Source: Bacilli bacterium
GTDB lineage: Bacteria > Bacillota_I > Bacilli_A > RFN20 > CAG-826
Assembly: GCA_051872395.1 (NCBI GenBank)
Contig: JBJEDU010000035.1
Span: 5,740 to 69,739 of the forward strand
Direction of reading: 5' to 3'
Length of the DNA: 64,000 bases
This document shows positions 35,544 to 55,426 of the stretch, one piece after another. Position 1 is the stretch's first letter. Each line of letters opens with the position of its first letter. The position numbers were made by a program, and so were the translations under genes. Below the pieces are notes generated by a model. The model saw nothing but the letters and a program-made list of their open reading frames with translations, made no database searches and was not told the origin of the DNA.

Positions 35544-36179
35544 CTAATCTTTTTTCTTTTGATGTTTTAAAAATAAATCTTCTAAGTAAACATTAACAAC
35601 TGTAAATACAAACATCAAAATTGTGACAATTTGTCTAATTATTTCAATTGGAGTTAAATAAATCGCATGCCCTAAAATAAAGACCACAGAAGTTAAAATA
35701 GAGAAAACCATTGAAATAGTTACCATGAATCCTTTACTTTTTCGATTTAAGTTATAGTTAATAAACAAAGAAACAAAAATGAAGACAACATCATAAATTA
35801 AAAGCATGACAAGAAGAATTCCTTTTGTATCTAATGTGTTATAACCTAAACGATAAAAAGTAAAATAGAAAGAGAACAAATAAGTAATCAAATATAAAAC
35901 ATCTCTCGCTAATAAAGAAAGAGAGGATATATTAATCAATTTATTATCCACTTTATTAGTTATTATTAGTTTAACTAATCCATAACACGCAATAACCGCT
36001 CCAGAAAGATTAGTAACACTGACAAAAATTAAAATTAATGTCTCATAAGTTTTGCCTAATCCTTCCGCGTTAGCGATATTACTAATGCATTGAATTAATA
36101 AAGAAATAAACGCAAACAAAAATGAACAAATTAAAAAAGAGAAATAAGTAATTCTTGTTATTTTTTGGGCTTTAACCAT
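35544..36179 (-). CDS. Hypothetical small polytopic membrane protein
   Basis: 211 aa, 5-6 hydrophobic helices; RBS AGGAGAAAAG. Confidence 0.45.
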   Translation of the reverse strand: MVKAQKITRITYFSFLICSFLFAFISLLIQCISNIANAEGLGKTYETLILIFVSVTNLSGAVIACYGLVKLIITNKVDNKLINISSLSLLARDVLYLITYLFSFYFTFYRLGYNTLDTKGILLVMLLIYDVVFIFVSLFINYNLNRKSKGFMVTISMVFSILTSVVFILGHAIYLTPIEIIRQIVTILMFVFTVVNVYLEDLFLKHQKKKD

Positions 36180-36255: not shown

Positions 36256-37071
36256 TTATTCTTTAATAATTTTATAAGTTCCTTTAATCGCTAAAGAGGA
36301 AATATCTTTTGGATTATAAATAGAACAATTTGAAGTGATAACATTACCTTTTAAGTCACTCTCTTCACCAAGATAATCACAATCCACTAATTCGCAATCG
36401 ATAAATTTAATATTTTCACTATAACAAAATGGTTGTTTAGATTTAATTTTACAACGAACAAAGGTGACATTTTTAGCGTACCACGCGACATATTCACCAA
36501 TGATTTCCATATCTTTTACCATGATATTTTCACTATGCCAAAATGGATCTTTCGTCTCTAGTCGACCAACATTTAAATTAATATCTTTAGAATATTGAAA
36601 AGAATATTTTCCTTTCAAATTCAAATTTGTCGCGTTGATATCTTGGCAATGTAAAAAAGCATATATGCTTTCAATATTAATATTTATTAGTTTAATATGT
36701 TGACATTTAATAATGCTTTCATCACCAAGAAGAACACCATTACTAAAATCAATATTTTGACATTCTCTTAAAACTTTATCTCCATTAAATGAAGTATCTT
36801 TAATAACGATGTTATTGCTATACCAAAAAGGTCCTCGACAAGTAATAGCGAAATTACTTCGATTAACTTCCACACCAAGACAATTCCAAAAAGGATAACG
36901 AAGAGCGAAATAAGAATCATTCACTTCGATATCTTTAGAAAATTTAAAAGCACTTTCACCATCTAAAGGACCACCAGTATAAATGTTAGTGAATGAAATC
37001 TTATTGCTTTTAAAAAATATTCTTTCTTGGTCTGAAGAAATATTTGAAATTATGTTTTGATATTTAGTCAT
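36256..37071 (-). CDS. Parallel beta-helix repeat protein of unknown function (DUF3737-like)
   Basis: 271 aa with repeated about 22-aa units rich in N/I/C/F (e.g. SENIMVKDMEIIG, SENIKFIDCELVDC); overlaps hydrogenase gene stop by 8 nt (translational coupling). Confidence 0.5.
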   Translation of the reverse strand: MTKYQNIISNISSDQERIFFKSNKISFTNIYTGGPLDGESAFKFSKDIEVNDSYFALRYPFWNCLGVEVNRSNFAITCRGPFWYSNNIVIKDTSFNGDKVLRECQNIDFSNGVLLGDESIIKCQHIKLININIESIYAFLHCQDINATNLNLKGKYSFQYSKDINLNVGRLETKDPFWHSENIMVKDMEIIGEYVAWYAKNVTFVRCKIKSKQPFCYSENIKFIDCELVDCDYLGEESDLKGNVITSNCSIYNPKDISSLAIKGTYKIIKE

Positions 37072-38497
37072 TTTTTAATACTTTAATCGCATCAGTAATT
37101 GTCTTTTCTAATGCTTCTCTCCCATATTTATCTACTTCTGATTTATCTCTAAATTCATGAGTTAAACAACAAGGACCGCCAATACAACCATTCGTGCACG
37201 CCATACCTTCAATAAAATTGAAATCTCTCAATTCAGGTTTATTTGCCTTATCTAATATGGCTTTACAATTATCAAGACCATCAGCAGCGACAGCTTTAGC
37301 GACAAAGGTAGAATTTTGTTCTTTAAGCGCTTCATTAACCGCGTCCACTAAACCACCACAACGAGCGAATATTCTTCCAAAATAAGAAGCATTATCTAAT
37401 TTATTTTCTTCTAATTCGCTAGCGACAATATCTCGAGAATCAATCAACGCTTGTAATTCTTCAAATGTCAAAACACTATCGACATAATTTTTAACTTTAT
37501 CTAATTGAATTTCTTTCTTTTTAGAAATGCAAGGTCCAATAAAGACAACCTTTGAGGTTGGATCGACACTTTTAATATATTTACTAATCGCCCCCATTGG
37601 AGATAAATTCGATGAAATATATTGAACCAAAGATGGATATTTCTTTTTGATAAAAGAAACAAATGAAGGACAACAACTGCTAGTTAAAAATCCTTTTTCT
37701 TCTAATTCTTTGGCTTCGTCATAACTGACCATATCCGCGCCTAAAGCAGCTTCAACAACACTATGGAAGCCTAACATTTTAATCGCGGTCACCACTTGTC
37801 CTAAAGAAGCATATTTAAATTGTGATGAAATGGAAGGGGCAACAACTGCGTAAACATGATATTTTTTGGAAAAATCACTATCTTTTAAGAAGTCAATAAC
37901 ATCTGTAATATATGATTTATCCATAATCGCTCCAAATGGACATTGATAAACACACGCTCCACATTGAATACATTTTTCATCATCAATTTTTGCAGCAAAG
38001 TCTTCACCCATTGAAATAGCTTTTACTTTACAAGCACTTTCACATGGTCTTTTAAAGTTGATAATCGCTCCATATTGACATGCCTTTGCACATAAACCAC
38101 AGTTGATACATTTAGTTTTATCAATTTGGGCAGTATGAGTCACTTCATTAAATGTAATCGCGTTTCTATGACATGCTTTTTCACATCGATGAGCGATACA
38201 TCCACGACAAGTTCTTGTAACTTCATATCCTCCTAATGGGCATTCATCACAAGCAATATTTAAAACTTGAACAACGTTTGAATTACTTCTATCCCCACCT
38301 TGAGCGACATGCATTCTTTCTAAAACGATTGCTCTTTCTTTATAAATACAACATCTCATCGTTGGTTTTGGACCAGGGACAATACGCTTTGGAATCTCAT
38401 TATATTCTTCAAGCAAAGTACCATTAAAATACGCTCTCGCGACTTCTTTTAATACTTTATATTTCAATTCTTGTACATTCGTATCAAATTTTAACAT
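37064..38497 (-). CDS. [FeFe]-hydrogenase-like protein with N-terminal Fe-S cluster domains (HydA2-like position; H-cluster motifs non-canonical)
   Basis: Two 4Fe-4S ferredoxin motifs (CINCGLCAKAC, CIQCGACVYQC), L1 SSCCPSF, L2 GPCISKKKE, L3 EGMACTNGCIGGPCC. Confidence 0.75.
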   Translation of the reverse strand: MLKFDTNVQELKYKVLKEVARAYFNGTLLEEYNEIPKRIVPGPKPTMRCCIYKERAIVLERMHVAQGGDRSNSNVVQVLNIACDECPLGGYEVTRTCRGCIAHRCEKACHRNAITFNEVTHTAQIDKTKCINCGLCAKACQYGAIINFKRPCESACKVKAISMGEDFAAKIDDEKCIQCGACVYQCPFGAIMDKSYITDVIDFLKDSDFSKKYHVYAVVAPSISSQFKYASLGQVVTAIKMLGFHSVVEAALGADMVSYDEAKELEEKGFLTSSCCPSFVSFIKKKYPSLVQYISSNLSPMGAISKYIKSVDPTSKVVFIGPCISKKKEIQLDKVKNYVDSVLTFEELQALIDSRDIVASELEENKLDNASYFGRIFARCGGLVDAVNEALKEQNSTFVAKAVAADGLDNCKAILDKANKPELRDFNFIEGMACTNGCIGGPCCLTHEFRDKSEVDKYGREALEKTITDAIKVLKND

Positions 38498-38526
38498 GGC
38501 ATTTTCTCCTTAATTTATAATATAAA

Positions 38527-39705
38527 TTAGAAATAACTAACTTTAATTTTCTTTCCCATTTGTTTTAATAATTTTGATAATTCATCAATCAATTGCATTT
38601 TAATTGAAAAATTAATTTGTAATCCTTCTTTTTGATGAGCAGGATTAACTGCACATCCAACAAAGAAATTAATATCTGTCGCTTCTTCAAATAATAATCT
38701 CGCTATTTGGCTCGCCCCATCTTGCGCGTAACTCCAATAAAAATATTTGGAATTATCTTCTAATACATTTTTCGCGTACTCTAATACTTTATTGATAGTG
38801 ATAACGCCTTCAGTAACTAAATCCACACCTTCAATCGAAGAAGTTGGAGGAATTTCTTTATCAATATAATCGAGTGATAATTCTAAGGGTTTATCTAAAA
38901 ATTTAGAAACCATATTAGATGTTGAACCACCTGAAACGATATGCTTCCCTTCTTTAGCGAAAAACAAAGATAACATTTTATTATCATCATCTCTATTACT
39001 CGCCGGTCCAATAAGAAGATTACACATTGATTTTTTTCTCACTCTCACCACGACCGCGGTCGTATCATCTTGAGGTTTACCACCATATAAACTATTACAA
39101 TGATCAATTAGCATCGTCGCTAAAGTTTTACTTGAATAAATTGGTGAATATAAATTAGACATGAAATCGACAATATTAGGTCTATCCCATCCCCAATTTA
39201 ATGAATTACCAATTCCAGCGTGAATTGTTCCATCACTCATCAAAATGAAAGTATCGTATAATTTTGCATTAATATGAGAGTGATATATTTTCTTTCCATC
39301 AATTTCAGACATCACTTGCATGACTGGATATTCCTTACCATCTCTTAAAATGATGGGTTGAGGATTGTCATAATTATATATATCAATCGAAGTGTTATTA
39401 GTAATTTTTAAAATGGTAAATGTTGAATATGCGACATGGCGATCTTTACAAACTGGAAGAGTTTCCACTACTGTTTGTACACATTCTTCAATCGAAATGT
39501 TATTAGCCATCATCGTTGAAAGAATGCGACTAGTCAAAGTCGACAAAATGTTAGCCTTAACTCCACTTCCTAAACCATCCGCTAAAACGACAATGTGGGT
39601 ATTATCATCTTTAGAAATTATCTCAACATGATCACCACATAATTGTTCACCTTCATGATTTAAAGATAAATAACCAATTTCTGTGACATAATTATTTAAT
39701 ATCAT
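38527..39705 (-). CDS. PP2C/SpoIIE-type serine phosphatase with about 165-aa C-terminal domain of unknown function
   Basis: PP2C motifs GDHVEII...VVLADGLGSGVKA and FILMSDGTIHAG; start overlaps hydS by 14 nt. Confidence 0.7.
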   Translation of the reverse strand: MILNNYVTEIGYLSLNHEGEQLCGDHVEIISKDDNTHIVVLADGLGSGVKANILSTLTSRILSTMMANNISIEECVQTVVETLPVCKDRHVAYSTFTILKITNNTSIDIYNYDNPQPIILRDGKEYPVMQVMSEIDGKKIYHSHINAKLYDTFILMSDGTIHAGIGNSLNWGWDRPNIVDFMSNLYSPIYSSKTLATMLIDHCNSLYGGKPQDDTTAVVVRVRKKSMCNLLIGPASNRDDDNKMLSLFFAKEGKHIVSGGSTSNMVSKFLDKPLELSLDYIDKEIPPTSSIEGVDLVTEGVITINKVLEYAKNVLEDNSKYFYWSYAQDGASQIARLLFEEATDINFFVGCAVNPAHQKEGLQINFSIKMQLIDELSKLLKQMGKKIKVSYF

Positions 39706-41380
39706 CTTTGAATGTATCCTTTAAACTTGATAAGGCCACTTTCGTTTCTGCTGCGGTTTCACCGAGTAAAGAAGCAATTTCTTGAACACTTCTCATATTT
39801 TTATCGATAACTTTATTAGTTATTTCGATAGATTTTCTTAATAATTCTTCTTTATTTTGTTTTTCAATCTCTTCATTAGTGATATCTCTCATAATGACGA
39901 TAAGAATATGGAATTGATGATCAAATACAATAGTTTGTTCGACATATTTATTGTATTCAGTCAAATATTCTTTTTTTCCATGAATTGTATCTAAACCACA
40001 TAACACTTTCGCATATAAATCTGGTTCTAATATCGTCGTGACATTTTTACCAGTAACAAAAGAAGAATCAGGAACTCCAATAATCTTACACATTGATTGA
40101 TTCATTAATTGAATGTTTAATTCTTCATCTAACACCATCAATCCATTTGGAGTATTGCTGACAATATTTTCCGAGAAAGATTCCGCTTTATCCATGAGGT
40201 AAGGTAAGCACATTTCTTTAACGGCTTTGCCTTCTAAAATCGCAATCGCTTTTTCTCGGCAAGTATTATATCCACAAGAACCACAGTTGAGTTCTTTTGA
40301 TTTATCATTTTTACCCATTTCTTTTAAAATGCGGTCAATTTCTTTTTCACTTGGTCTGGCTTTTTTAACATTGATTTCATAGAAATCTTTTCTTATATCT
40401 TCATAAGATTTTTCAGAGACTATAAAATCTTCTTTTCCAGCTTTTTGATGGACATATAAATAATCTTGTAATAAAGCTTTTCTTTTTGCATTTAACGCTG
40501 GTCCATTAATACAAGAACCACTACAAGCACTCATTTCAATAAAACAATGATGAACTTTTCCGCTTTCAATATCTTCTAAAGCTCGTAAAACATTATCCAT
40601 TCCATCAATTACCAAATATTGATAGTTTTTATTACGACATTCCATCGATGAAAGAATACCACCTGAAGTAGGAAATAGTCTTGTTTTACTATTGTTATTA
40701 ATTTCATCGTGATCTTGTTTAGAAATTTCAATATTGGCTTCTTTGAGCATATTATCTAATTCTAAAAATGTTAAGACCACGTCAATATAGGCTTTGTTTT
40801 TATCCGATTCATCCTTTTTAGCAATACATGGTCCAATAAAAACAACTTTCGCGTCTTTATGACGTAATTTAATGTCTTCTCCATGAGCGAGCATTGGTGA
40901 AAGGACATTAGCTAAATATGGTAAACATTTTGGATGATGTTTTTGTAAAAGTAAATTAATGGAATGACAGCAAGAAGAAATGATAATATCTTGCTTATTT
41001 TCATCGAGCATTTGATCATATACTTTTTTAACAATTGTCGCACCTATCGCAGTTTCTTCAACATCATAAAAACCTAATTTTAATAGTGCTTCTTTGACAT
41101 TATTAAAACCACAATTACGATACGCGGCAAAAAAGGAAGGGGCTAAAGAGACAATGACTTTCTCCCCGTTAGCGATCATATTTTTGACTAATCTCACATC
41201 ATCACGAATGACTTTTGTGCCTTGTGGACATGAAACATAGCAGCGACCACATAAGATACATTCATCATGGATAATTTTTGCTTGATTAGAAGAAAATGAA
41301 ATAGATTTTGTTGGACAACCTCTAATACATTTATAACAATTTTTACAATCATTTGTTTTGCTAGATAAACAATATTCCAT
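39692..41380 (-). CDS. hydS: Putative sensory [FeFe]-hydrogenase (HydS-like): 2x[4Fe-4S] domain, H-domain, Cx2Cx4Cx16C cluster motif, C-terminal PAS domain
   Basis: CKNCYKCIRGC/CILCGRCYVSC ferredoxin motifs; L1 SSCCHS, L2 GPCIAKKDE, L3 EMSACSGSC; CGSCGYNTC-x16-C; PAS-like C-terminus (aa about 400-520). Confidence 0.75.
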   Translation of the reverse strand: MEYCLSSKTNDCKNCYKCIRGCPTKSISFSSNQAKIIHDECILCGRCYVSCPQGTKVIRDDVRLVKNMIANGEKVIVSLAPSFFAAYRNCGFNNVKEALLKLGFYDVEETAIGATIVKKVYDQMLDENKQDIIISSCCHSINLLLQKHHPKCLPYLANVLSPMLAHGEDIKLRHKDAKVVFIGPCIAKKDESDKNKAYIDVVLTFLELDNMLKEANIEISKQDHDEINNNSKTRLFPTSGGILSSMECRNKNYQYLVIDGMDNVLRALEDIESGKVHHCFIEMSACSGSCINGPALNAKRKALLQDYLYVHQKAGKEDFIVSEKSYEDIRKDFYEINVKKARPSEKEIDRILKEMGKNDKSKELNCGSCGYNTCREKAIAILEGKAVKEMCLPYLMDKAESFSENIVSNTPNGLMVLDEELNIQLMNQSMCKIIGVPDSSFVTGKNVTTILEPDLYAKVLCGLDTIHGKKEYLTEYNKYVEQTIVFDHQFHILIVIMRDITNEEIEKQNKEELLRKSIEITNKVIDKNMRSVQEIASLLGETAAETKVALSSLKDTFKDDIK

Positions 41381-41406
41381 ATTGATTTCCTCAAAAAATT
41401 AGACTA

Positions 41407-41429
41407 TTAACCCCCAAATTGGGGGTTAA
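41407..41429. promoter_or_regulatory. Perfect GC-rich inverted repeat TTAACCCCC-AAATT-GGGGGTTAA in ferredoxin-hydS intergenic region (possible attenuator/processing or protein-binding site)
   Basis: Read directly; U6 tract lies 8 nt downstream on transcribed strand, then RBS GAGGAAAT of hydS. Confidence 0.4.
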
Positions 41430-41443
41430 TCAGTAAAATGTAA

Positions 41444-41689
41444 TTATAATTTTTCTAAAACGTGTTCATTGAATACATCTTGGAAGTTATCTTTATTAAC
41501 ACCAGTGATGATATCATCGTCAATTTTACAACTGACACCATGAATTCCACATTTTCCTAAGCAGAATGTCGCTTTTAAAGTAACTTTTTCTTCAAGATGA
41601 TTTTCGCTGATAGCTTTTTTGAAAAGTTCAATAATGTCATAAGAACCGTTCAAGTGACAGCTCGAACCAACACAGACAAGAATAGTCAT
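41444..41689 (-). CDS. Small thioredoxin-like [2Fe-2S] ferredoxin (NuoE/HndA-like module)
   Basis: 81 aa; Cys pattern CVGSSCHLNG...CLGKCGIHGVSC typical of thioredoxin-like 2Fe-2S ferredoxins. Confidence 0.6.
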   Translation of the reverse strand: MTILVCVGSSCHLNGSYDIIELFKKAISENHLEEKVTLKATFCLGKCGIHGVSCKIDDDIITGVNKDNFQDVFNEHVLEKL

Positions 41690-41692
41690 AAA

Positions 41693-44305
41693 TTAAATAC
41701 CTTTGTAAGCCTTTCTTAATATTTCTTTCATATCATTAACAAGAGGAACTCTTGGATTGGCAGGTGAACATTGATCTTCATAGGCTAAGACAGCGATTTC
41801 ATCAATCTTGCTATCCCAGTCTTCTTGAGAAATTCCACATCCTTCAAAAGAAATCGCTAAGCCAATTTCTTCGCCTAAATTTCTCACTGCAGTCGCTAAG
41901 GAATCGACAGCGACTTCTGGAGTTTCAGCATTTAAACCAAGAAGCTTAGCAATATCTTGATATTTCTTATCGGCACAATAAGTATTATATTTTGGCCAGA
42001 CAGATAATTTAGTAGGAACTTCGCCATTATAACGAATAACATATGGTAATAAGATGGCACATGTATGACCATGAACAGTATGGAATTCCGCTCCAACTTT
42101 ATGGGCTAAAGAGTGAGTCATACCTAAGAACGCATTAGCGAAAGCCATACCGGCGATAGTCGCGGCATTATGCATTTTTTCTCTCGCTTCTAAATCATTT
42201 TTGCCATTTTTCACAGCACGTGGTAAATATTCGAACACTAATTTGATAGCTTGTAAAGCCAAACCATCAGTGTAATCATTGGCCAAGACAGAAACATAAG
42301 CTTCGATAGCGTGAGTTAATACATCCATACCAGTTTGAGCAGTTGGTCGAGCAGGTAAATTAGTGGTAAATTCTGGGTCGACAATCGCGACGGTAGGAGT
42401 TAATGAATAATCGGTAAGAGGATATTTTTTCATATTCTTCTTATCTGAAATAACCGCGAATGGAGTGACTTCAGAACCGGTACCAGAAGTAGTAGGAATA
42501 CAAATTAATTTTGATTTTCTTCCAAGTTCAGGATATTTAAAGGCTCTCTTTCTAATATCCATGAATTTTTGTTTTAAGTCATCGAAATTGACTTCTGGAT
42601 GTTCATAGAATAACCACATTCCTTTAGCAGCATCCATTGGTGAACCACCACCGAGCGCGATGATAGTGTCAGGTTGGAACGCTTCCATCAATTTCACACC
42701 ACGTCTTACAGTTTCAATATCTGGATCTGGTTCAACATCGCAGAATAATTGAACTTGAACAGGACTTCTTCTAAGAGATAATTGTTCAGTAATTTTATTA
42801 ACGAAACCGAAATCGACCATCGAACGGTCAGTAACGATAAAGACTTTATTGACATCACGGCAAGATTGTAAATATTGAATTGAATTTCTTTCAAAATAAA
42901 TTTTGCTTGGAACTTTAAACCATTGCATATTGTTTCTCCTTTTTCCAACACGTTTAATGTTAAGTAAATTGACCGCGGAGACATTGCCTCCGATTGAGTT
43001 ACGTCCATAACTACCACATCCAAGAGTTAAGGATGGTAAGAATGAGTTATAGACATTACCAATACCACCAAAGGTGGAAGGAGAATTCCAAATGATTCTC
43101 ATCGCTTTGCATGCTTCACCAAATTTATCCGCTAAAGCTTGGTCTTTGCAGTGAATTGCTGCGCTATGACCTAAACCATTGAAATTGACACATGAAGCAG
43201 CTAAATGAATACCTTCATCTTCATCTTTCGATTTATATACTGCTAAAACTGGAGATAATTTTTCTCTTGAAAGAGGTTCATCGACTCCAACAGTTTTACA
43301 GAAAGCCGCTAAAACAGAAGTGTCATCTGGGACATCAAAGCCAGCTTGATTGGCAATCCATTTCGCGCTTTGACCAACGATTGTTGGATTTAATTTTGCT
43401 TTGTCGACTTCGCTTGGACTAGAAACTCCGAACATAAATTTTTCGAGCATTTCTTTTTCTTTCTTAGTAACGAAATAAACTTTGAATCTTTTGAATATTT
43501 CAATTGCTTCATCAAAAACTTCTTGGTCGATAATGACTGATTGTTCAGAAGCACAAATCATTCCATTATCAAAGGCTTTAGATAAAACGATATCATTAAC
43601 TGCTTGTTCGACATTCGCAGATTTATTAATATAGGCAGGAACATTACCAGCACCAACACCCATCGCTGGTTTACCACAACTATAGGCAGCTTTAACCATT
43701 GCATTACCACCAGTCGCCAAAATAGTAGCAACACCAGTATGATTCATGAGGGCGGTTGTCGCATCCATTGAAGGATGTTCGACCCATTGAATACAGTTTT
43801 TAGGAGCGCCAGCTTTCACTGCAGCGTCTCTAATCACTTCTGCTGCCATCTTCGAACATTTTTGTGCGCTTGGATGGAAAGCAAAAATAATTGGGTTTCT
43901 TGTTTTTAAACAAATCAAAGCTTTAAAAATAACTGTTGATGTTGGATTAGTAACAGGGGTGATACCACACACGACACCAAGAGGTTCAGCAATTTCAGTA
44001 ATTCCAGTAACTGGGTCATCGCTAATAATTCCAACAGTTTTTAAATGACGCATGTTATTAACAACATATTCACATGCAAATAAATTTTTTGTGGCCTTAT
44101 CTTCGAAAACACCACGTTTTGTTTCATCAATCGCGGCTTTAGCTAAAACACCATGTTGGTCTAAGCCGGCAACACTACATTTTGCTACAATGTAGTCAAC
44201 TTGCTCTTGATTGAGATTTAAAAATTCATCAAGGGCTTCTTTTGCGTTTTTAACAAGTTGATCAACTTCTTCAAACGCTTCAACGCTTACAATTTTTTCT
44301 GCCAT
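41693..44305 (-). CDS. adhE: Bifunctional acetaldehyde-CoA/alcohol dehydrogenase
   Basis: 870 aa; N-terminal ALDH domain with catalytic Cys region (NGMICASEQS), C-terminal iron-ADH domain (GGGSPMDAAK, His-rich metal site). Confidence 0.95.
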   Translation of the reverse strand: MAEKIVSVEAFEEVDQLVKNAKEALDEFLNLNQEQVDYIVAKCSVAGLDQHGVLAKAAIDETKRGVFEDKATKNLFACEYVVNNMRHLKTVGIISDDPVTGITEIAEPLGVVCGITPVTNPTSTVIFKALICLKTRNPIIFAFHPSAQKCSKMAAEVIRDAAVKAGAPKNCIQWVEHPSMDATTALMNHTGVATILATGGNAMVKAAYSCGKPAMGVGAGNVPAYINKSANVEQAVNDIVLSKAFDNGMICASEQSVIIDQEVFDEAIEIFKRFKVYFVTKKEKEMLEKFMFGVSSPSEVDKAKLNPTIVGQSAKWIANQAGFDVPDDTSVLAAFCKTVGVDEPLSREKLSPVLAVYKSKDEDEGIHLAASCVNFNGLGHSAAIHCKDQALADKFGEACKAMRIIWNSPSTFGGIGNVYNSFLPSLTLGCGSYGRNSIGGNVSAVNLLNIKRVGKRRNNMQWFKVPSKIYFERNSIQYLQSCRDVNKVFIVTDRSMVDFGFVNKITEQLSLRRSPVQVQLFCDVEPDPDIETVRRGVKLMEAFQPDTIIALGGGSPMDAAKGMWLFYEHPEVNFDDLKQKFMDIRKRAFKYPELGRKSKLICIPTTSGTGSEVTPFAVISDKKNMKKYPLTDYSLTPTVAIVDPEFTTNLPARPTAQTGMDVLTHAIEAYVSVLANDYTDGLALQAIKLVFEYLPRAVKNGKNDLEAREKMHNAATIAGMAFANAFLGMTHSLAHKVGAEFHTVHGHTCAILLPYVIRYNGEVPTKLSVWPKYNTYCADKKYQDIAKLLGLNAETPEVAVDSLATAVRNLGEEIGLAISFEGCGISQEDWDSKIDEIAVLAYEDQCSPANPRVPLVNDMKEILRKAYKGI

Positions 44306-44311
44306 AATGTT

Positions 44312-44950
44312 TCAATCTTCCTTTAACTTAGTATTTAATTTATGTGAGAGAACGGCGAGTGAACTCGCTAAGTTGACATTTTCCACTATGACGTTCTCAT
44401 TCACTTTTAGAATTGTCGGAGCAAAGTTCCAAATGGCTTTGACTCCTGAATTAATTAATCTATCGCATACTTCTTGAGCGACTTCAGTCGGAGTACATAA
44501 TATTGCGATATGAACATTTAATCGGGGAATTAAGTTTTCAATCCTTTCGATGGAAAATATTTCTTTTCCATTAATGCGAGTTCCTATCTTATTTGGATCA
44601 ATATCAAATCCTGCTAAGATGTTTAATCCAAATTCTTCAAATCCATTAAAGTTCATGAACGCTGAACCTAAATGTCCAACACCAACAATTACTGTTGAAG
44701 TTGAATCACGATAACCGAGATAATTTTCTAAATCATCAATGAGGTCTTGAACTTGTCTTCCAGTTTTTGGTTTACCAGAATTAGAAGTAACAATTTGCAA
44801 GTCTTTACGAACTTGCTCTTCATTAAATCCATTCATCGCAGCAATTTGAGGCGCGCTGGTATGGGTAATACCTTCACTTTTTAACCCCTTCAAATACTTT
44901 AAGTAAATTGGAAGTCTCGCTAATTGTTTAACTGAAATGGGCTTTTCCAC
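44312..44950 (-). CDS. rex: Redox-sensing transcriptional repressor Rex
   Basis: wHTH N-terminus (RLPIYLKYLK), Rossmann GVGHLG; GTG start with RBS AAGGAGAG; 6 nt upstream of adhE. Confidence 0.9.
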   Translation of the reverse strand: MEKPISVKQLARLPIYLKYLKGLKSEGITHTSAPQIAAMNGFNEEQVRKDLQIVTSNSGKPKTGRQVQDLIDDLENYLGYRDSTSTVIVGVGHLGSAFMNFNGFEEFGLNILAGFDIDPNKIGTRINGKEIFSIERIENLIPRLNVHIAILCTPTEVAQEVCDRLINSGVKAIWNFAPTILKVNENVIVENVNLASSLAVLSHKLNTKLKED

Positions 44951-44988
44951 TTGTCTCTCCTTATCAGTATTTTTTTACTGACATCGAT

Positions 44989-45019
44989 ATTATACATATG
45001 AAAATGTATATATGCAATA
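44989..45019 (-). promoter_or_regulatory. Putative rex promoter (-35 TTGCAT, -10 TATAAT on minus strand) with 6-6-6 palindrome ATACAT-N6-ATGTAT in the spacer
   Basis: Read on reverse complement of 44951-45105. Confidence 0.3.
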
Positions 45020-45107: not shown

Positions 45108-45146
45108 TTAAAAAATAAAAAAATCGTAAGTGAAACACTCACGATT
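45108..45146 (-). terminator. Rho-independent terminator of ATP-grasp gene (stem atcgtaagtg/cactcacgat, loop AAA, then U-rich tract on minus strand)
   Basis: Read directly; 10-bp stem, U7AU6 follows on transcribed strand. Confidence 0.55.
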
Positions 45147-46517: not shown

Positions 46518-48419
46518 TTATTCAACTTTATCATCGATGAGGTTGAAATCAATTTGAGAAACATCGAGATTATATCCGTATTTATTAACAGCGAAGCAAG
46601 TTGCAGCTTTATCTAAAATAAATGAATAGTAAGTATCTAAAACTTTATCATTTAAATACAAAACTGTTTTCGCTCCAAGAACGGATTCATTGTTGAATTT
46701 AAGTTTTAAATTTTGACCTTTAATGACTTCTTTTTTATTTGTCACTCTCGTCAAATTATCAAATGGAACAGTAATTTGATATTTATGTTTTCCTTCTAAT
46801 AATATCGAATTAGCGATTTTGATATTATTATTCAATAATTTGAACTTAGAAACACCATTTTTAGTATTAACTAAAACATCAAATTTATTTTCTAAAAGTG
46901 GATATTTACAAGTTAACACAGTGTCCATTTCTTTATTCATTAATACTAAATTCTCTTTCTTGACATAAACAGTAATATCATCATCAACATTTAAATCAAG
47001 AAGAGGTAATTTAACACCTAAATAAGTATCACGATCACTTGTTGAAATATAAAGGAGCATCGAATCTTTTGATTTTTCAATGATTTTGATTTTCGCTTTA
47101 ATTTCAATATCATCGTCTTTCTCTTTTGTTAATGAGAAATTCGCTGTATCAATTTTTAAAACCACATCATGGACACCAGTCCAATATGAAGGAAGGACAA
47201 ACGCTCTTTCGTTTTCTGTTAAAGGAATAAGTTTATCCCCAAGCGTAATTACACCATTATCTCCATCATATCTCGCTAATAAATAATTGAAATTAGTCAA
47301 ACCAGAAATACGATTTTGATTATTTGCATCAAATAGATGAATGTGACGAGTGTGGAATTTAACAGTAATGACATCGCCTTCTTTAATTTCTTTTCTTCCA
47401 TCAATTTTACAAACGATAGGAATTTCTGTTTCATTAATTTTTCCATAGACGATAAGTTCAGAACCAAGTTTTTCAATAACATCGACAAAAACTTTAAAAA
47501 CGTCACTTCCAGAAACTTCATCTGTTTGATAAATTTCTTCTGGACGAATACCAATTTTTACATCTTTGCCGATATAATCTAAACTCACTAATTGGTGAAT
47601 TGTGTCTTCATGTAAAACGATTTTACAAGTCGATTCACCACTTGTTATTGTCGCATAATATTTATTCTTTTCTTTCGATAACTTCGCATCAAATAAATTC
47701 ATTTGAGGCGCGCCTAAGAAAGTCGCGACGAAAATATTTGTTGGATGGTCATATAAATTTGTTGGGGTATCAATTTGTTGAATGACACCATCTTTCATAA
47801 CGACAATTTTACTCCCCATTGTCAAGGCTTCGGTTTGGTCATGGGTAACATAAATGAAAGTTGTTTGAAGTCGACGATGAAGTTTAGTAATTTCGCTTCT
47901 CATTTGAACACGTAGTTTTGCGTCTAAGTTACTTAAAGGTTCATCGAGCAAGAATACTTTTGGTTCACGAACAATACTTCTTCCTAACGCAACTCTTTGA
48001 CGTTGACCACCTGAAAGAGCTTTTGGTTTACGAGTCAAATAATCAGTTAAACCTAATATTTCTGCTGCGGCTTTAATACGTCGGTCAATTTCATCATTAT
48101 CAACATGAGCGAGTCTTAAACCAAATGCCATATTTTCATAAACGGTTTTATGTGGATATAAGGCATAATTTTGGAAAACCATTGTAATATCACGGTCTTT
48201 TGGAGGTAATTCGTTCACTAATGTATCTCCAATATAAAGATCACCTGAAGTAATTGCTTCAAGACCTGCAATCATTCTTAAAGTTGTTGATTTACCACAT
48301 CCAGAAGGTCCAACAAAGACAACGAAATCTTTATCATCGATTTTTAAATTCAAATCGTTGACCGCTTTGACACCTCCATCATAAACTTTGTAAATGTGGT
48401 CTAATTTTAAACTCGCCAT
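46518..48419 (-). CDS. MalK/MsmX-type sugar ABC transporter ATP-binding protein with about 260-aa C-terminal extension
   Basis: Walker A GPSGCGKST, signature LSGGQRQR, Walker B FLLDEPLSNLD, TOBE-like domain to about aa 370, then additional unique about 260 aa. Confidence 0.85.
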   Translation of the reverse strand: MASLKLDHIYKVYDGGVKAVNDLNLKIDDKDFVVFVGPSGCGKSTTLRMIAGLEAITSGDLYIGDTLVNELPPKDRDITMVFQNYALYPHKTVYENMAFGLRLAHVDNDEIDRRIKAAAEILGLTDYLTRKPKALSGGQRQRVALGRSIVREPKVFLLDEPLSNLDAKLRVQMRSEITKLHRRLQTTFIYVTHDQTEALTMGSKIVVMKDGVIQQIDTPTNLYDHPTNIFVATFLGAPQMNLFDAKLSKEKNKYYATITSGESTCKIVLHEDTIHQLVSLDYIGKDVKIGIRPEEIYQTDEVSGSDVFKVFVDVIEKLGSELIVYGKINETEIPIVCKIDGRKEIKEGDVITVKFHTRHIHLFDANNQNRISGLTNFNYLLARYDGDNGVITLGDKLIPLTENERAFVLPSYWTGVHDVVLKIDTANFSLTKEKDDDIEIKAKIKIIEKSKDSMLLYISTSDRDTYLGVKLPLLDLNVDDDITVYVKKENLVLMNKEMDTVLTCKYPLLENKFDVLVNTKNGVSKFKLLNNNIKIANSILLEGKHKYQITVPFDNLTRVTNKKEVIKGQNLKLKFNNESVLGAKTVLYLNDKVLDTYYSFILDKAATCFAVNKYGYNLDVSQIDFNLIDDKVE

Positions 48420-48421
48420 AA

Positions 48422-49336
48422 TTATTCTCCTTCCTTGGTGAGTAACCCTTTGTTAACAATTTCTTTCGAATATTTTTTGTTTATGAATTTGTCAAACATC
48501 TTGAAGGCATAAAGACAAAAACATAAACTCATATGTGAAAATCCATAAAGGACAATTAATATCAAACTAATAATTTGGATAAGTGCGATTGGAATAAAAA
48601 TATAAAGAAGAAAAAATAGCGCACTAATCGCAACAAATAATAAATTTAATGGATATAAAACAAACGATAACATCAAATTATTTTTTAATGCTGGAATAAA
48701 TTTAAAATTATATAGTGTCCCCGAGGCGAGGAGATAGAGGGACAGCATGATTGAAAATAGATATACGATAGTTAATAAAATTATTAATATCACTTTAACA
48801 AATGAAGGAATATCAGTCATTAAAGGATAAAAATAAATATTGGAAATATAAAGGAATGAAAAAAGAGAAAATATCGCACCACTTAAAAGGGAAGATTTTA
48901 TATTATCTTTGATTCCAAAAAAGAAATCTTGTCCGACATTGATTTTTGGATCTTGAAACACTAACTTCTTAATGACATAAAATAGTCCACCTAAACCAAT
49001 AAATCCAATAATTAATAAAGGAATTGAAATCAAAGAAGAAATCATATTTAAAGAGAAATTTCTTAAATCGATATCGGCTTGAGTTAATGAAGTGGTATCG
49101 ATTGGCTGCATCATATAAAGTTTCCAAATAAAATTAAAAGCGAAAAACGGAATAAAAAATAACGCGCTAAGAAAAGATAAAGCGATTAATGTTCCAAATC
49201 GATGAGATAAAATATCAAAATACGCATAAAAACGATTCGATGGAAGTTTATCTCCGTTTTTTGATCGATTTTTATTGAAGAAATTATATAATTTCGTTCC
49301 TCTTTTATTTTCTGACATTTTGTTTAAATTTTTCAA
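48422..49336 (-). CDS. Hypothetical membrane protein associated with sugar ABC locus (YesL/DUF624-like?)
   Basis: 304 aa, 6 hydrophobic helices, N-terminal basic cytoplasmic segment. Confidence 0.45.
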   Translation of the reverse strand: MKNLNKMSENKRGTKLYNFFNKNRSKNGDKLPSNRFYAYFDILSHRFGTLIALSFLSALFFIPFFAFNFIWKLYMMQPIDTTSLTQADIDLRNFSLNMISSLISIPLLIIGFIGLGGLFYVIKKLVFQDPKINVGQDFFFGIKDNIKSSLLSGAIFSLFSFLYISNIYFYPLMTDIPSFVKVILIILLTIVYLFSIMLSLYLLASGTLYNFKFIPALKNNLMLSFVLYPLNLLFVAISALFFLLYIFIPIALIQIISLILIVLYGFSHMSLCFCLYAFKMFDKFINKKYSKEIVNKGLLTKEGE

Positions 49337-50237: not shown

Positions 50238-50239
50238 AT

Positions 50240-51292: not shown

Positions 51293-53182
51293 CTATCTAT
51301 GAGAATACTTTTTCTTTTTGACAATTAATATAATTAATGCGCTGATAACTACAATTGAAATAATTGAAACAAATCCGACAAGTGTGTTGCCATTACTAAT
51401 GAAGTTTACATAAACGGAACCTAAAGTAGAAACAACAGCGGCACTATTCATATAGTTAATTGTTTCAACTACACCACATTTAGTAACTACGACATCATTA
51501 AGGTAATAAGTTTCACCTGGATCTACAATATTATTGTAATTATAATCATCGCTATTATTAATGATGGTTTTCGCAGTTACATCACTTATCGCATTATATT
51601 TACTAACTATATCGTTTCTTGTTTCAGTAGATAATTGACACAATGTATCACTACCATAATTACGCACTGTCGCATAGAATTCATCTAAGAAATTGAATGC
51701 TTTGAGTACAGAATCATTTTCTTCTTCAATATTTGAAACACCACGAACATATTTTGGATAAACAACGCCTTTGAATGTTTGATCTGGAGTCGCATCACAG
51801 GTTTGTTTAATAATATTGTCATCGAGTTCAACTTTAATGTCATTAACATTTAAATTGAATCTAATTTCATCAATATAGGATAAACCCCATCCATCACCGG
51901 TATTATTTTCACCGATTTCTAAATAAACGGTTTTTCCAACTAAACCAGAAATATCAACAAATACTTCGGTCATAGTATTAATCATACTTTTGCTGCTAAC
52001 AATATTGGCTACACCATTATCAACGAAGTAACGCATATTATTTCCAGTAGGAGTAAATTCAAATAAAACATCTTCAGTAGTAGAGTCAATTAAACGAACA
52101 TTAGCTTTCGCTGCTCCAATACGGAATGCCATATAATTATCTGTAATATTGATAGTAAATTTTGATCTTAATAATACTTTTACAGTTTCAGCAATTCCAG
52201 TCCAAGTTGGGTGAGTAGAGAAAAATTTATTACCGTGTTTATTAAATGGCATATGTTCTGCCCATTCATAACAATCTCTGGAAGAAATCATAGCGTTCCA
52301 CATATCATTTGTTAATTCAAGTGTCGATGAATCTTCATTGATAGAAAGATTAGTGAAATAATCCGCTAAAGCGATACCTTCAAAATCTAAAACCTCATAA
52401 CTTTGCCAATCATTTGATCTAAATGATGCAAATTCTTCAGTTTCATTGATTTTGCTCATCATATAGGCGTATTGACCAGCGTCTTTGTCGCCATCTGTTT
52501 GAGTGAGATAAGCATTTTTACGATAAGCCCTAATATCATTAGTAACATCCTCTGCAGTTTGATTGAATTTCAAACCACCGAAGTTGACAATACCAAATCC
52601 GCCAGTATTATTATCGACAACACGAACTGAAATATAATGATCGACATAATCCGCTAAATCAGCGACACGAATGTATAAAGCTTCACCAGTTTTTGGATCA
52701 TGAAATAAGCCAACATTCGTGAATTTTTTGATAGCAACACTACTGGTATTATCAGTGCCATTATCAATAATTTCGACATAGAGATTTTCTTCATTCGCTC
52801 CACCGCCTAAATAGAAAGTAAGATATCTTTCTGTTTGTTTGACTGGAGTTTTTAATTGAAGCTTTGATGTATTAGCGTCTCCACTTGCGGTTATTGTTTC
52901 ACCATCAGTGTCATAATTAACATCATCTACGCTTCGGTAAAAATCGATACCCTCTGGTACAAAGAATGAACGCACTGACCACCATCTACTAGTGCTGTTT
53001 GATGTAGGAAAACAACCAGTTGTTCCATCGACATATTCAAATGTATCACTACTGAATGCCACAGAAGTAACTGGGGATTCATCTTCTGCTTTTGCAACAT
53101 GACTATTATTTGCTTTCAAACCACTTGCAAATAATAATGACGCCATGAAAACAGGGACGAATAATAATTTCTTATTTTTCAT
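51293..53182 (-). CDS. Cell-surface protein with signal peptide, two degenerate CBM_4_9-like modules and C-terminal TM anchor
   Basis: Signal MKNKKLLFVPVFMASLLFASG; module endings LYIRVADLADYVDHYISVRVVDNNTGGFGIVNFGGLKF and VYLEIGENNTGDGWGLSYIDEIRF; C-terminal hydrophobic anchor plus KKKK. Confidence 0.6.
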   Translation of the reverse strand: MKNKKLLFVPVFMASLLFASGLKANNSHVAKAEDESPVTSVAFSSDTFEYVDGTTGCFPTSNSTSRWWSVRSFFVPEGIDFYRSVDDVNYDTDGETITASGDANTSKLQLKTPVKQTERYLTFYLGGGANEENLYVEIIDNGTDNTSSVAIKKFTNVGLFHDPKTGEALYIRVADLADYVDHYISVRVVDNNTGGFGIVNFGGLKFNQTAEDVTNDIRAYRKNAYLTQTDGDKDAGQYAYMMSKINETEEFASFRSNDWQSYEVLDFEGIALADYFTNLSINEDSSTLELTNDMWNAMISSRDCYEWAEHMPFNKHGNKFFSTHPTWTGIAETVKVLLRSKFTINITDNYMAFRIGAAKANVRLIDSTTEDVLFEFTPTGNNMRYFVDNGVANIVSSKSMINTMTEVFVDISGLVGKTVYLEIGENNTGDGWGLSYIDEIRFNLNVNDIKVELDDNIIKQTCDATPDQTFKGVVYPKYVRGVSNIEEENDSVLKAFNFLDEFYATVRNYGSDTLCQLSTETRNDIVSKYNAISDVTAKTIINNSDDYNYNNIVDPGETYYLNDVVVTKCGVVETINYMNSAAVVSTLGSVYVNFISNGNTLVGFVSIISIVVISALIILIVKKKKYSHR

Positions 53183-53203: not shown

Positions 53204-55426
53204 TTAAAGTGTATTTATAGCGTTAGCCCAAGGAATATCTGTCACTACTGGCGGGTTACCAGTAACTTCAACTTGGGATACGGTATCAAATTTTGTTGAG
53301 ACATCAATTTCAGTCTCATAATAAGTGACGATTTCATCAAAGAAGACAACTTGCCATCCTCCATCGATAACTTCATCCACTAATTCGATATATAAGTTTT
53401 CTCCAATATAATCACTTAAATCAGCAACATAAGTTACCATTGTTGCTAAGCGACAACCATTAGAAACAGATGGGAAATTAACATCCGCGAAATTATAATT
53501 TTCATATTTTGCAATCATTTCGCCATTTTCTCTTCTAACAATTACTCTCGTGGAACGACCACCTAATTTAAATGAGATTTGTCCACTACCACCTAAGGTG
53601 AAATTAGTGGATTTAAATGAGAAGCCATTTGATTCTTCTACTCCGGCATCCCATCCATTGAAGAAGTATGTTCCAGTTTTGTTATAAGGAATTTCTTCAC
53701 TCCAGAAGGTATCAAGCGAACAAATGGCCGCATTGAGATTTGGACTACCACTTGTAATGGTCCAGCCAGTGGCATCTCCAGTTTCAAATCCACCATTAAC
53801 GATGTTATTATCGTAAGTCATCTTAGTAACAACTTCGATTTTGATTGTACCTACTGAAACATTGTTATAAGCATCAGTCGCGCTGAAAGTATATAAATAT
53901 GTTCCGTTTTGACTTAAATCACAAGCATAGTAATTGACATCTTCTAAAGTTGTTCCGTTTCTACTTAATGAAACTGAACGAATGACGAGATCATTTCTAA
54001 CAGTGTAATCATCTTTAATAGTTGTATTTTTGATGAGTTCCACTAAATTGTATGAACTACTAGCAGAAATCATTGTTTGATAAGCGTAATCGTTTTCATC
54101 GACTGAAATGACAGGAGCGTCTCCACCTACTGGGAATGAAATAACATTGTTATAAGCATCAATATAGGCGTTTTTCGCTACGCTATCATCGTTATATAAA
54201 CTACCATCCACTAAAGAAGCTCTTTCATTAATGATGGTTTCTTGACTCAAATTAATTCTGAATTCGTCAGCGTTAATTGCTGCAAAGCCTCCACTAGTCG
54301 CATTATCGTTAATAGTGAAATATAATGTTTGACCAATATAATTTGATAAATCGACATAATATCTCACTAATGAAAGTGATAATTCTGGGTCTTTAAAGGC
54401 AATGTTTTTAATTTTAATTAACTCTTCGCCTGTTAAACCGTTGTTAACAGCGATATATCCACTCGCGTCTTTAATACCACCTAATAAAACCGAAGCGTAT
54501 GAGGTGTTATTGCCTTGATCGGTGACGAGGAATTTTTCACTTCTTATCGTGCCGGTTAAATTTTCAGCATTTTTATATCCATTAAGGAAATAATTTCCAC
54601 TTGCGTTATGTTTTCTATCGGTCCAGAAATTTTCACTACTTAAACTAACTGAACCTTGAGTAAAGGCATTACCTTTAAGTATTTTCCAATAAGATAAATC
54701 GCCAGTTTCAAACCCACCATTTCTTAATTCTGTCACTGGAGGGTCATTATCGATGACTTCATCATGATATTCAATTAATTGTTCTTCTCTTTGAGTTCTT
54801 GCATCATTTAATTCTTGAGCGTTTTTCAAAATGCGAACATCATCGAGATTGACAAATGAATAATCGATATAATCACTATTTCTATCATTATCAGTAACTT
54901 TGATATAAATGACTTTTTCAAAATAATCACTCAAATCAACAACTTGTCTAATAAGTTGAGATTTAATGGTCGAATCATTGAAATCATCATTTGTTAATTT
55001 TGTGACTGTTTCTTGTTTTTGATTGACAATAAATGAAAGTGGTTCCGTTTTGCCGTATTCAAAAAATTCAATATAGCAATTTTCTTTATTTTTCATCGCT
55101 CCAATTTTTAAGGTAATTTGACCGATACCTTCTAAAACGAATGGATCTGAGATTAAACTACCAGTAAATGATGGAAGAGAAGAATAACCACCTACATAAC
55201 AATATGACCCTTCTTTATTTGTTGGAAGTCCGTCATTAAAAGTATCGATGTTCACAATATCTTCTTCTGTGAATGCACCTTCACCACTGACAGTCCAGCC
55301 TGTAATTCCATCTTCAAAGCTTCCGTTAGTGACACTATCAGGGAAAGAAGTAGTATCAGTGGTATCTTTTTGACAGCCAGTTAATAAAAGAGGGAGAATC
55401 AATAAGGGGAGAATCTTTTTGTTCAT
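53204..55426 (-). CDS. Surface lipoprotein with three tandem CBM_4_9-like beta-sandwich modules (putative fructan-binding protein)
   Basis: Lipobox LLLTGC; three repeats starting NGSFEDGITGW / NGGFETGDLSYW / NGGFETGDATGW and ending (V/Y)VDLS(D/N)YIG..LY(F/I); 740 aa. Confidence 0.65.
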   Translation of the reverse strand: MNKKILPLLILPLLLTGCQKDTTDTTSFPDSVTNGSFEDGITGWTVSGEGAFTEEDIVNIDTFNDGLPTNKEGSYCYVGGYSSLPSFTGSLISDPFVLEGIGQITLKIGAMKNKENCYIEFFEYGKTEPLSFIVNQKQETVTKLTNDDFNDSTIKSQLIRQVVDLSDYFEKVIYIKVTDNDRNSDYIDYSFVNLDDVRILKNAQELNDARTQREEQLIEYHDEVIDNDPPVTELRNGGFETGDLSYWKILKGNAFTQGSVSLSSENFWTDRKHNASGNYFLNGYKNAENLTGTIRSEKFLVTDQGNNTSYASVLLGGIKDASGYIAVNNGLTGEELIKIKNIAFKDPELSLSLVRYYVDLSNYIGQTLYFTINDNATSGGFAAINADEFRINLSQETIINERASLVDGSLYNDDSVAKNAYIDAYNNVISFPVGGDAPVISVDENDYAYQTMISASSSYNLVELIKNTTIKDDYTVRNDLVIRSVSLSRNGTTLEDVNYYACDLSQNGTYLYTFSATDAYNNVSVGTIKIEVVTKMTYDNNIVNGGFETGDATGWTITSGSPNLNAAICSLDTFWSEEIPYNKTGTYFFNGWDAGVEESNGFSFKSTNFTLGGSGQISFKLGGRSTRVIVRRENGEMIAKYENYNFADVNFPSVSNGCRLATMVTYVADLSDYIGENLYIELVDEVIDGGWQVVFFDEIVTYYETEIDVSTKFDTVSQVEVTGNPPVVTDIPWANAINTL

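Follow-up and report, generated by a model that had tools for sequence, protein, structure and literature searches.

A 64,000-nucleotide stretch of DNA from an uncultured Bacilli bacterium (assembly GCA_051872395.1, contig JBJEDU010000035.1, positions 5,740 to 69,739), referred to here at its full length as the window, was analysed for a cluster of seven genes in which rex and adhE precede the genes of two [FeFe]-hydrogenases and a phosphatase. The window has a G+C content of about 30%, and a 15-kb Logan contig carries an identical copy of the locus. The initial annotation of this DNA had described seven co-directional genes, tightly spaced or overlapping, and the open reading frame (ORF) coordinates agree with it, all seven genes lying on the minus strand between 36256 and 44950. 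Gene identities were established by profile searches of Pfam and NCBIfam using curated cut-offs, and every gene assignment made earlier was confirmed in this way.

44950..44312, minus strand: rex, 212 aa with a GTG start, NADH/NAD+-sensing repressor (NF003994, PF06971 and PF02629)
44305..41693, minus strand: adhE, 870 aa, bifunctional acetaldehyde-CoA/alcohol dehydrogenase (NF010378)
41689..41444, minus strand: hfsA-like gene, 81 aa, thioredoxin-like [2Fe-2S] protein (PF01257, 34.7 bits)
41380..39692, minus strand: hfsB/hydS, 562 aa, putative H2-sensing group C (M2f-type) [FeFe]-hydrogenase
39705..38527, minus strand: hfsC, 392 aa, PP2C/SpoIIE-family Ser/Thr phosphatase with a C-terminal domain
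38497..37064, minus strand: hfsD/hydA2, 477 aa, group B ferredoxin-dependent, H2-evolving [FeFe]-hydrogenase (TIGR04105)
37071..36256, minus strand: DUF3737 beta-helix gene, 271 aa (PF12541, 259 bits)

From rex to the DUF3737 gene, the successive gaps are +6, +3, +63, -14 (overlap), +29 and -8 (overlap) nt, so that adhE starts 6 nt past the rex stop and the hfsA start codon lies 3 nt past the adhE stop. Rex scored 250 bits with model NF003994 (cut-off 130) and combines a winged-helix domain (PF06971) with an NAD(H)-binding Rossmann domain (PF02629), its translation containing the nucleotide-binding motif GVGHLG, while AdhE scored 1407 bits with NF010378 (cut-off 951). Pfam scans of every other ORF of at least 120 aa in the window returned housekeeping genes and a GH32 fructan-utilisation locus. 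In agreement with what the initial annotation had stated of the kinase and HydEFG, no protein kinase, HydE/F/G or radical-SAM enzyme was found in these scans, the only kinase-family matches in the rest of the 64 kb being a thymidylate kinase and a PfkB sugar kinase.

Putative sensory hydrogenase, phosphatase and group B hydrogenase

The 81-aa HfsA, in which Cys6, Cys11, Cys43 and Cys47 fit the pattern Cx4C...Cx3C, is probably the small subunit of the sensory hydrogenase, and an HfsA-like gene stands immediately 5' of hfsB in nearly all of the loci compared below. HfsB consists, in order, of two [4Fe-4S] domains (two Fer4 matches at residues 8-54), an H-domain (Fe_hyd_lg_C, PF02906, 173 bits), a Cx2Cx4Cx16C cluster, a PAS domain and a C-terminal helical tail. 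The extra cluster is formed by C366-x2-C369-x4-C374-x16-C391 and is covered by an FeS match (PF04060, 36 bits, residues 364-393) spanning CGSCGYNTC...C, and the PAS domain passes both PF00989 (25.2 bits, cut-off 22.6) and TIGR00229 (23.8 bits, cut-off 22.9). The earlier description of the 562-aa protein as carrying an H-domain, the Cx2Cx4Cx16C motif and a PAS domain was thus borne out by both the profile searches and the cysteine spacing.

HfsD was recognised by TIGR04105 (FeFe_hydrog_B1) over residues 4-447 with 549.6 bits against a cut-off of 450, and contains the motifs TSSCCPSF, FIGPC and EGMACTNGC. The H-cluster cysteines of HfsB are likewise present (L1 SSCCHS, L2 GPC, L3 EMSACSGSC) and align with the CpI-type motifs. 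The initial annotation had termed the H-cluster motifs of both proteins non-canonical, a description that did not hold: SSCCPSF and SSCCHS are indeed present, but they are the consensus of 65 group B and about 70 hfsB-type orthologues, respectively. With the window protein included, the consensus of the 70 HfsB orthologues reads L1 I[ST]SCCHS, L2 F[IV]GPC and L3 FIEMSACxGSC, and that of the 65 HfsD orthologues L1 LTSSCCPxF, L2 FIGPC and L3 FIEGMACxGGCIGG.

Alignment to the group A enzymes revealed that in HfsB Met353 of CpI is replaced by Gly, Met497 by Ser and Glu279 by Lys, the first two of these being the replacements seen in the sensory hydrogenase HydS of Thermotoga maritima (TmHydS; PMC8163306, PMC10055695). 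HfsD, when aligned to CpI, retains the equivalents of C299, E279, E282, S319 and M497, residues that appear as expected of a working catalyst; in these alignments the catalytic proton path is intact in HfsD and not in HfsB. The PDB held no structure of a group B or C hydrogenase, the nearest entries belonging to group A (E 1e-21 and 1e-32), and H2 sensing by group C hydrogenases is still termed putative (PMC8924675).

The same residues bear on a rival view, in which HfsA, HfsB, HfsC and HfsD would make up one multi-subunit catalytic hydrogenase, HfsB serving as a second catalytic or electron-transfer subunit and HfsC tuning the enzyme post-translationally and not at the level of transcription. 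This would suit the tight and translational coupling of the hfs genes and the presence in HfsB of both cysteines of L1 (SSCCHS), one of them corresponding to C299, the proton-relay residue of CpI, but it sits poorly with a protein that carries a PAS domain and has sensor-type residues at Met353 (Gly), Met497 (Ser) and Glu279 (Lys). Published work points both ways. H2 production by HfsABC without HfsD has been raised as a possibility (PMC13277313) and changes in alcohol dehydrogenase activity were unexplained by transcript levels (PMC5707799); however, deletion of hfsB raised hydrogenase activity and ethanol yield where deletion of the whole operon did not (PMC5707799), and hfsD expressed alone restored the phenotype (PMC11837493). 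We consider a single catalytic complex unlikely, and favour a sensory HfsB standing beside a catalytic HfsD.

The start region of hfsC overlaps the end of hfsB by 14 nt, an overlap conserved in nearly all of the 80 loci compared, and the phosphatase translationally overlapping hydS that had been proposed is therefore confirmed. The SpoIIE match (PF07228) covers residues 34-223 only, and residues 224-392 have no Pfam match; the protein is composed of a PP2C part (residues 1-225) and a conserved Rossmann-like α/β domain (about residues 227-392). HfsC has the PP2C fold together with its metal-binding aspartates, D25, D43, D158, D213 and D214 being invariant in the homologue alignment, and the phosphatase active site is intact. 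The AlphaFold2 model of the whole protein had a predicted local distance difference test score (pLDDT) of 81 and a predicted template modelling score of 0.83.

The 165-aa C-terminal domain had been singled out earlier as uncharacterised, and while it does lack a Pfam match, it is not distinctive, being universal in the HfsC family. At least 8,000 HfsC homologues were found, and among the 120 matches listed nearly all were of 386-393 aa and covered the query from end to end. An exhaustive search with residues 228-392 as the query returned 972 cluster representatives, in which the domain almost always occupied positions ~227-390 of proteins of ~390 aa. Since it is near-universal in the homologues and in the domain search alike, the C-terminal domain is, judged by sequence, a defining feature of the HfsC family and no peculiarity of this locus. 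Modelled alone, as had been suggested as a check, it adopted a three-layer α/β/α Rossmann-like fold with a pLDDT of 86.6, and a Foldseek search of the domain against the PDB gave nothing at E<=1e-3. Numerous polar residues of the domain are invariant (17 were selected in the alignment), and a GxHIVxGGxT loop lies where the modelled sheet has its C-terminal edge. These features suggest a specific ligand or partner site, and the domain might serve to bind a nucleotide or another metabolite, or as a docking surface for HfsB.

Related loci and regulatory signals

Species-representative genomes were scanned with an HfsC alignment, which gave at least 558 matching stretches, and the best 80 loci (individual loci are denoted by L and a number, L001 being this organism) were compared by tblastn with the window proteins. 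The order hfsA-hfsB-hfsC-hfsD was co-linear in nearly all of these 80 loci, each from a different species, and AdhE was encoded directly upstream in 32 and Rex in 22. Because the hfsA-B-C-D order recurs, and because AdhE lies upstream in 32 loci, the gene arrangement is not due to chance.

An ORF of 249 aa was found upstream of hfsA in 38 loci, and between adhE and hfsA wherever adhE was present. Its product gives matches to APH (54 bits) and RIO1 and a weak one to Pkinase, identifying it as an APH/RIO-like kinase. The Ruminococcus loci L040 and L041 (R. bicirculans) contain this kinase and two tandem HfsA genes, giving an eight-gene arrangement that agrees with the R. albus cluster of PMC6776011. 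In the window, the kinase slot between adhE and hfsA is empty, only 3 nt separating the two genes. Kinase-less adhE-hfsA junctions were also present in L002-4, L006 (Erysipelotrichaceae) and L012 (Anaeroplasmatales), and further in L014, L015, L018, L065 and L071, making at least 10 further species in all, and kinase-less loci are thus a common, recurrent architecture.

Two types of HfsA could be distinguished, A1 being the distal copy, which adjoins the kinase in kinase-bearing loci, and A2 the copy that adjoins hfsB; the window has a single copy, of the A2 type. Two HfsA copies were present in 23 of the 35 kinase-bearing loci as compared with 8 of 32 without kinase (Fisher p=0.0013), and where a kinase-bearing locus had a single copy this was of the A1 type in 11 out of 12 cases. 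A2 alone, with no kinase, was found in the window and in its relatives L002-6, L012, L014, L015, L018, L026 and L078. This distribution suggests that the kinase and HfsA1 act as a pair that is lost or gained together, and the co-occurrence would point to HfsA1 as partner or substrate of the kinase. As a separate observation, in L016, L039 and L050 hfsB-hfsC is followed by no group B hydrogenase; a distant hydrogenase with 28-30% identity to HfsD lies ~3 kb downstream, accompanied in L016 and L039 by another HfsA-like gene, and the sensor and phosphatase of these loci may be linked with another hydrogenase, possibly one of the bifurcating kind.

The coupling of the beta-helix gene to the downstream hydrogenase, also noted initially, is real in so far as the DUF3737 gene overlaps the hfsD stop codon by 8 nt, but the attachment is confined to this Bacilli clade. 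DUF3737 follows hfsD in two related organisms (L202, 81% identity; L204, 48% identity) and does not do so in L206; tblastn gave no match at any of the 66 other-species loci that contain hfsD, and the surroundings of a 40%-identical homologue were unrelated. The DUF3737-positive L202 and L204 are syntenic with the window, L204 sharing also the downstream GNAT/RimK/Metallophos block, so that the linkage of DUF3737 to hfsD is accounted for by shared ancestry. DUF3737 was thus rejected as a conserved partner outside this clade, and it probably represents a tail gene specific to the clade, outside the core of the system.

The initial annotation had proposed a variant H2-dependent phospho-relay, which in its strong form would be kinase-free and would use the HfsC C-terminal domain and DUF3737 as new components. 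That the locus is an H2/redox-linked cluster of the Ruminococcus albus type stands, whereas its distinctiveness does not. The 64 kb contain no kinase homologue, but kinase-less loci are common and a kinase could lie elsewhere in the genome, of which 64 kb was visible. The HfsC C-terminal domain has neither a Pfam match nor a confident structural homologue; it is, however, also present in kinase-containing loci, and so is no substitute for the kinase. Similarly, DUF3737 overlaps hfsD by 8 nt and follows it in two relatives down to 48% identity, yet it occurs at none of the 66 other-species hfsD loci, has its 40%-identical homologue in an unrelated context, and its linkage in syntenic relatives is explained by common descent. 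A truly variant relay is, in our judgement, very unlikely, and a kinase-less form of the known cluster type is the reading we prefer.

The regulatory signals considered for the cluster were as follows.

45122..45146, minus strand: intrinsic terminator of the upstream ATP-grasp gene, an 11-bp stem and then TTTTTATTTT
44989..45017, minus strand: candidate sigma-70 promoter, TTGCAT, 17 nt, TATAAT, read from the sequence
44963..44982, minus strand: candidate operator, the palindrome GTCAGTAAAAAAATACTGAT, downstream of the -10 element and ahead of the rex ribosome-binding site
41406..41430, minus strand: stable hairpin with an 11-bp GC-rich stem and a weak, displaced T-run, in the 63 nt that separate hfsA and hfsB

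The terminator is a strong one and forms the 5' boundary of the cluster. The TTGCAT-17 nt-TATAAT element is a candidate cluster promoter, its -35 hexamer matching at only 3 of 6 positions and the scan tool having not listed it. The palindrome GTCAGTAAAAAAATACTGAT has a single match in the window. Allowing up to one mismatch, TCAGTA-N6-TACTGA occurred 8 times in 1.3 Mb of related loci, and 7 of the 8 occurrences were 30-80 bp upstream of a rex homologue, in L001, L002-4, L012 (twice) and L048. The positions are 1716 in L002, 4673 in L003 and L004, 4719 and 4757 in L012 and 2303 in L048. As L012 belongs to the Anaeroplasmatales and L048 to Desulfitobacterium, the palindrome is found upstream of rex in several distant lineages. 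The exact 18-mer TCAGTAAAAAAATACTGA matched at least 120 metagenome contigs, and among the matches listed only L179 (site at 5899) has rex-adhE alongside; no match to the cluster proteins was found near the 18-mer in the other 119 listed contigs, and no regulon emerged. The palindrome occupies the place where a canonical Rex box is expected, and, judging from sequence and position, either a variant form of the Rex operator or a binding site for some other regulator may be present here.

A canonical Rex operator, taken as TTGTTAA/TTGTGAA-N4-TTAACAA/TTCACAA, was sought in the window and in the rex-upstream regions of relatives, and no convincing site was found in this lineage, the best match upstream of rex having 4 mismatches and several partial matches elsewhere resembling extended -10 elements (TGTTAAAAT). 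Within the window, the closest approach to a Rex box, TTGTTAAAACTTTAAAAA (8451-8468), has 1 mismatch; it lies inside the 5' end of a dnaX-like ORF and is probably a chance occurrence in AT-rich sequence. A second palindrome, ATCGATA-N6/7-TATCGAT, was noticed 90-127 bp upstream of other hfs-linked rex genes, in L008, L023 (two copies), L058, L069, L070, L062 and L080, the hosts being Clostridia with the exception of L070 (Mycoplasmatota). In the window, a TATCGAT half-site lies directly 5' of the TCAGTA-N6-TACTGA palindrome, and TATTGATATAATCAA near 45050 parallels TATCGATATAATCG in L002.

The hfsA-hfsB hairpin had a minimum free energy of -19.3 kcal/mol when the 71-nt intergenic stretch was folded. 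It is possibly an internal attenuator or a transcript-stability element, and may lower expression of hfsBCD relative to rex-adhE-hfsA. Similarly strong hairpins were found at this position in few relatives only (L011, L021, L061 and L069), and the idea of a conserved attenuator was rejected, most orthologous spacers being 15-30 nt long and unstructured. The hairpin also enters into the suggestion that these genes are neighbours without functional connection, rex-adhE being one unit and the hydrogenase genes another. Its weak T-tail between hfsA and hfsB, and the description of T. saccharolyticum adhE (tsac_0416) apart from the four-gene hfs operon (PMC5707799), would be in keeping with separate units. 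However, the hairpin follows hfsA and does not stand between adhE and the hfs genes, the adhE stop is 3 nt from the hfsA start codon, adhE and hfs are linked in 32 of the 80 species loci, and the R. albus cluster is co-regulated 111-fold (PMC6776011). An accidental juxtaposition can hardly be credited, and we treat rex, adhE and hfsABCD as one functional cluster.

Several features of the surroundings are recorded here in their own right. On one side of the cluster lies a fructan-utilisation locus (46518-63977) with three GH32 enzymes, ABC transporter components, a LacI regulator and a PfkB kinase, and with two large ORFs without a Pfam match (51293..53182, 629 aa; 53204..55426, 740 aa). Just after the DUF3737 gene, 35544-36179 on the minus strand encodes a 211-aa predicted membrane protein without a Pfam or NCBIfam match, and this gene has its own promoter-like element (extended -10); a 213-aa gene without a Pfam match is similarly placed after DUF3737 in L202 and L203, the likeness being one of position. 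Further to the downstream side, 28640-32238 encodes a GNAT acetyltransferase, a RimK-type ATP-grasp protein, a calcineurin-like phosphoesterase and a 304-309-aa protein, and the same GNAT/RimK/phosphoesterase block occurs in L204 (6482-10483), where an extra 130-aa gene is inserted.

Proposed function and relation to known systems

The domains of the encoded proteins pass curated cut-offs, the hfs gene order and the hfsB-hfsC overlap are conserved, and AdhE and Rex recur upstream; for these reasons we consider it likely that the locus is the uncultured-Bacilli counterpart of the R. albus rex-adhE-hydS-hydA2 cluster, with hfsABCD as its core, and that it represents a streamlined subtype that is kinase-less and has a single HfsA.

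The function of such a cluster could be envisaged as follows. As H2 builds up, NADH would no longer be reoxidised via a bifurcating hydrogenase, and the cell would then need AdhE, which takes NADH to ethanol, and the ferredoxin-only group B HfsD, which takes reduced ferredoxin to H2. HfsA and HfsB would form a dimeric sensory [FeFe]-hydrogenase whose H-cluster equilibrates slowly with H2. Its redox state would pass by way of the C-terminal [4Fe-4S] cluster into the PAS domain and the helical tail, and thereby make HfsC, the translationally coupled PP2C phosphatase, more or less active. HfsC would in turn dephosphorylate a target that sets the expression or activity of AdhE and HfsD, while Rex would act at the promoter in front of its own gene, bringing NADH/NAD+ into the response. 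At high H2, the cell would thus rid itself of reduced ferredoxin and NADH through HfsD and AdhE as the outputs. We infer all of these signalling steps, the target of HfsC and co-transcription of the cluster in this organism.

A number of observations weigh against this assignment. No kinase is visible in the window: in addition to the Pfam scans of other ORFs of at least 120 aa, tblastn with the L040 and L041 kinases yielded no kinase homologue in the 64 kb (best E=2.2). Nor could a STAS or other phospho-substrate be identified in the 64 kb (small ORFs elsewhere were not scanned). HfsB retains a Cys at the position of CpI C299, as do all its orthologues, and such a Cys is kept in only ~17% of group C sequences (PMC10055695); because of this residue, HfsB may turn over H2 faster than TmHydS. 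There is no canonical Rex box (TTGTTAAnnnnTTAACAA, <=3 mismatches) upstream of rex, whereas a nearly perfect one, TTGTTAAAATAATAAC(A/G)A, precedes adhE in the rex-less relatives L014 and L015. Finally, the hfsA-hfsB hairpin could split the cluster into two transcripts.

Taking the comparative observations jointly, one may also picture a minimal A2-only, kinase-less architecture with adhE fused to hfsA, in which HfsC alone integrates H2 and metabolic state and rex has non-canonical operators; we offer this combined picture tentatively and think it rather unlikely as a whole. As for the operators, hfs-linked rex genes might use TCAGTA-N6-TACTGA or ATCGATA-N6-TATCGAT in this capacity.

The locus belongs to an already known system, that of R. 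albus and Thermoanaerobacterium, and is no new kind; what goes beyond published work is confined to the HfsC C-terminal domain, the co-occurrence of kinase and HfsA1, and the palindrome upstream of rex. In gut, rumen and industrial anaerobes, [FeFe]-hydrogenases that sense H2 presumably direct fermentation either to acetate plus H2 or to ethanol. The present analysis extends the cluster to low-GC Bacilli and finds its kinase-less, single-HfsA form to be recurrent, and the kinase/HfsA paralogue co-occurrence, the HfsC C-terminal domain and the candidate operator upstream of rex offer comparative handles on signalling.

Among earlier studies, Zheng et al. 2014 is reportedly also tied to the R. 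albus 7 cluster and Shaw 2009 to the Thermoanaerobacterium hfsABCD operon, the content of both being taken via citing papers, and Chongdar 2018 is the work said to concern T. maritima HydS. A partner-switching (STAS/GHKL) model was rejected, as no such genes lie nearby; Pfam scans of window ORFs of at least 120 aa revealed no GHKL anti-sigma kinase (smaller ORFs elsewhere were not scanned). Unlike the partner-switching phosphatases SpoIIE, RsbU and RsbP, HfsC has a regulatory domain that is C-terminal and Rossmann-like, and the associated kinase in related loci is APH/RIO-like.

HfsD resembles the group B hydrogenases (CpIII and a gut Bacteroides enzyme, PMC12578642) in passing TIGR04105 and in its L1-L3 signatures, but unlike stand-alone group B genes hfsD is embedded in a sensor/phosphatase cluster. 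HfsB in turn resembles TmHydS (group C, M2f; PMC10055695), both having two N-terminal [4Fe-4S] clusters, an H-domain, a Cx2Cx4Cx16C cluster and a PAS domain, as well as Gly at CpI Met353 and Ser at Met497. The two differ in that TmHydS has Ala at CpI C299, where HfsB and its orthologues have Cys, and in their operon partners.

Compared by description, the window has the identical four-gene order and domain content of hfsABCD in Thermoanaerobacterium saccharolyticum and T. thermosaccharolyticum, where the operon encodes a small HfsA, a PAS-containing [FeFe]-hydrogenase (HfsB, equated with HydS of R. albus), a Ser phosphatase (HfsC) and a ferredoxin-linked hydrogenase (HfsD, equated with HydA2 of R. 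albus) (PMC5707799, PMC11837493, PMC8924675). The Thermoanaerobacterium hfs operon is likewise without a described kinase; in contrast to the window, which joins rex and adhE to these genes, it is described as a four-gene operon apart from adhE. Deletion of hfsA or hfsB in Thermoanaerobacterium led to increased adhE expression and ethanol yield, an effect requiring hfsC and hfsD, and there is genetic evidence for a regulatory role of hfsB (PMC5707799, PMC11837493). The initial annotation had rightly named R. albus, but had not connected the locus with this genetically studied operon.

The eight-gene cluster of R. albus 7 comprises rex, adhE, a Ser/Thr kinase, small Fe-S proteins, hydS, a phosphatase and hydA2 (Greening et al. 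2019, PMC6776011). It encodes a ferredoxin-only hydrogenase, AdhE, a sensory hydrogenase and a Ser/Thr phosphatase, and was 111-fold down in co-culture with an H2 consumer (PMC6776011), its expression in R. albus being under the control of the H2 level. The parallel drawn in the initial annotation with an R. albus rex-adhE-hydS-hydA2 arrangement with kinase and phosphatase genes was sound (PMC6776011, PMC5707799; Ruminococcus loci L040 and L041), as was the remark that the signalling mechanism is unresolved, since it was still called unknown in 2026 (PMC13277313). Unlike R. albus, the window is without the 249-aa APH/RIO-like kinase and the kinase-proximal HfsA paralogue, adds DUF3737, has a different palindrome upstream of rex and belongs to a low-GC (30%) Bacilli lineage. 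As in R. albus, it has the same families in the same order, with rex and adhE directly upstream on the same strand, and the Ruminococcus loci L040 and L041 align with it gene for gene, with identities of 53-54% for HfsB, 59-60% for HfsC and 64% for HfsD.

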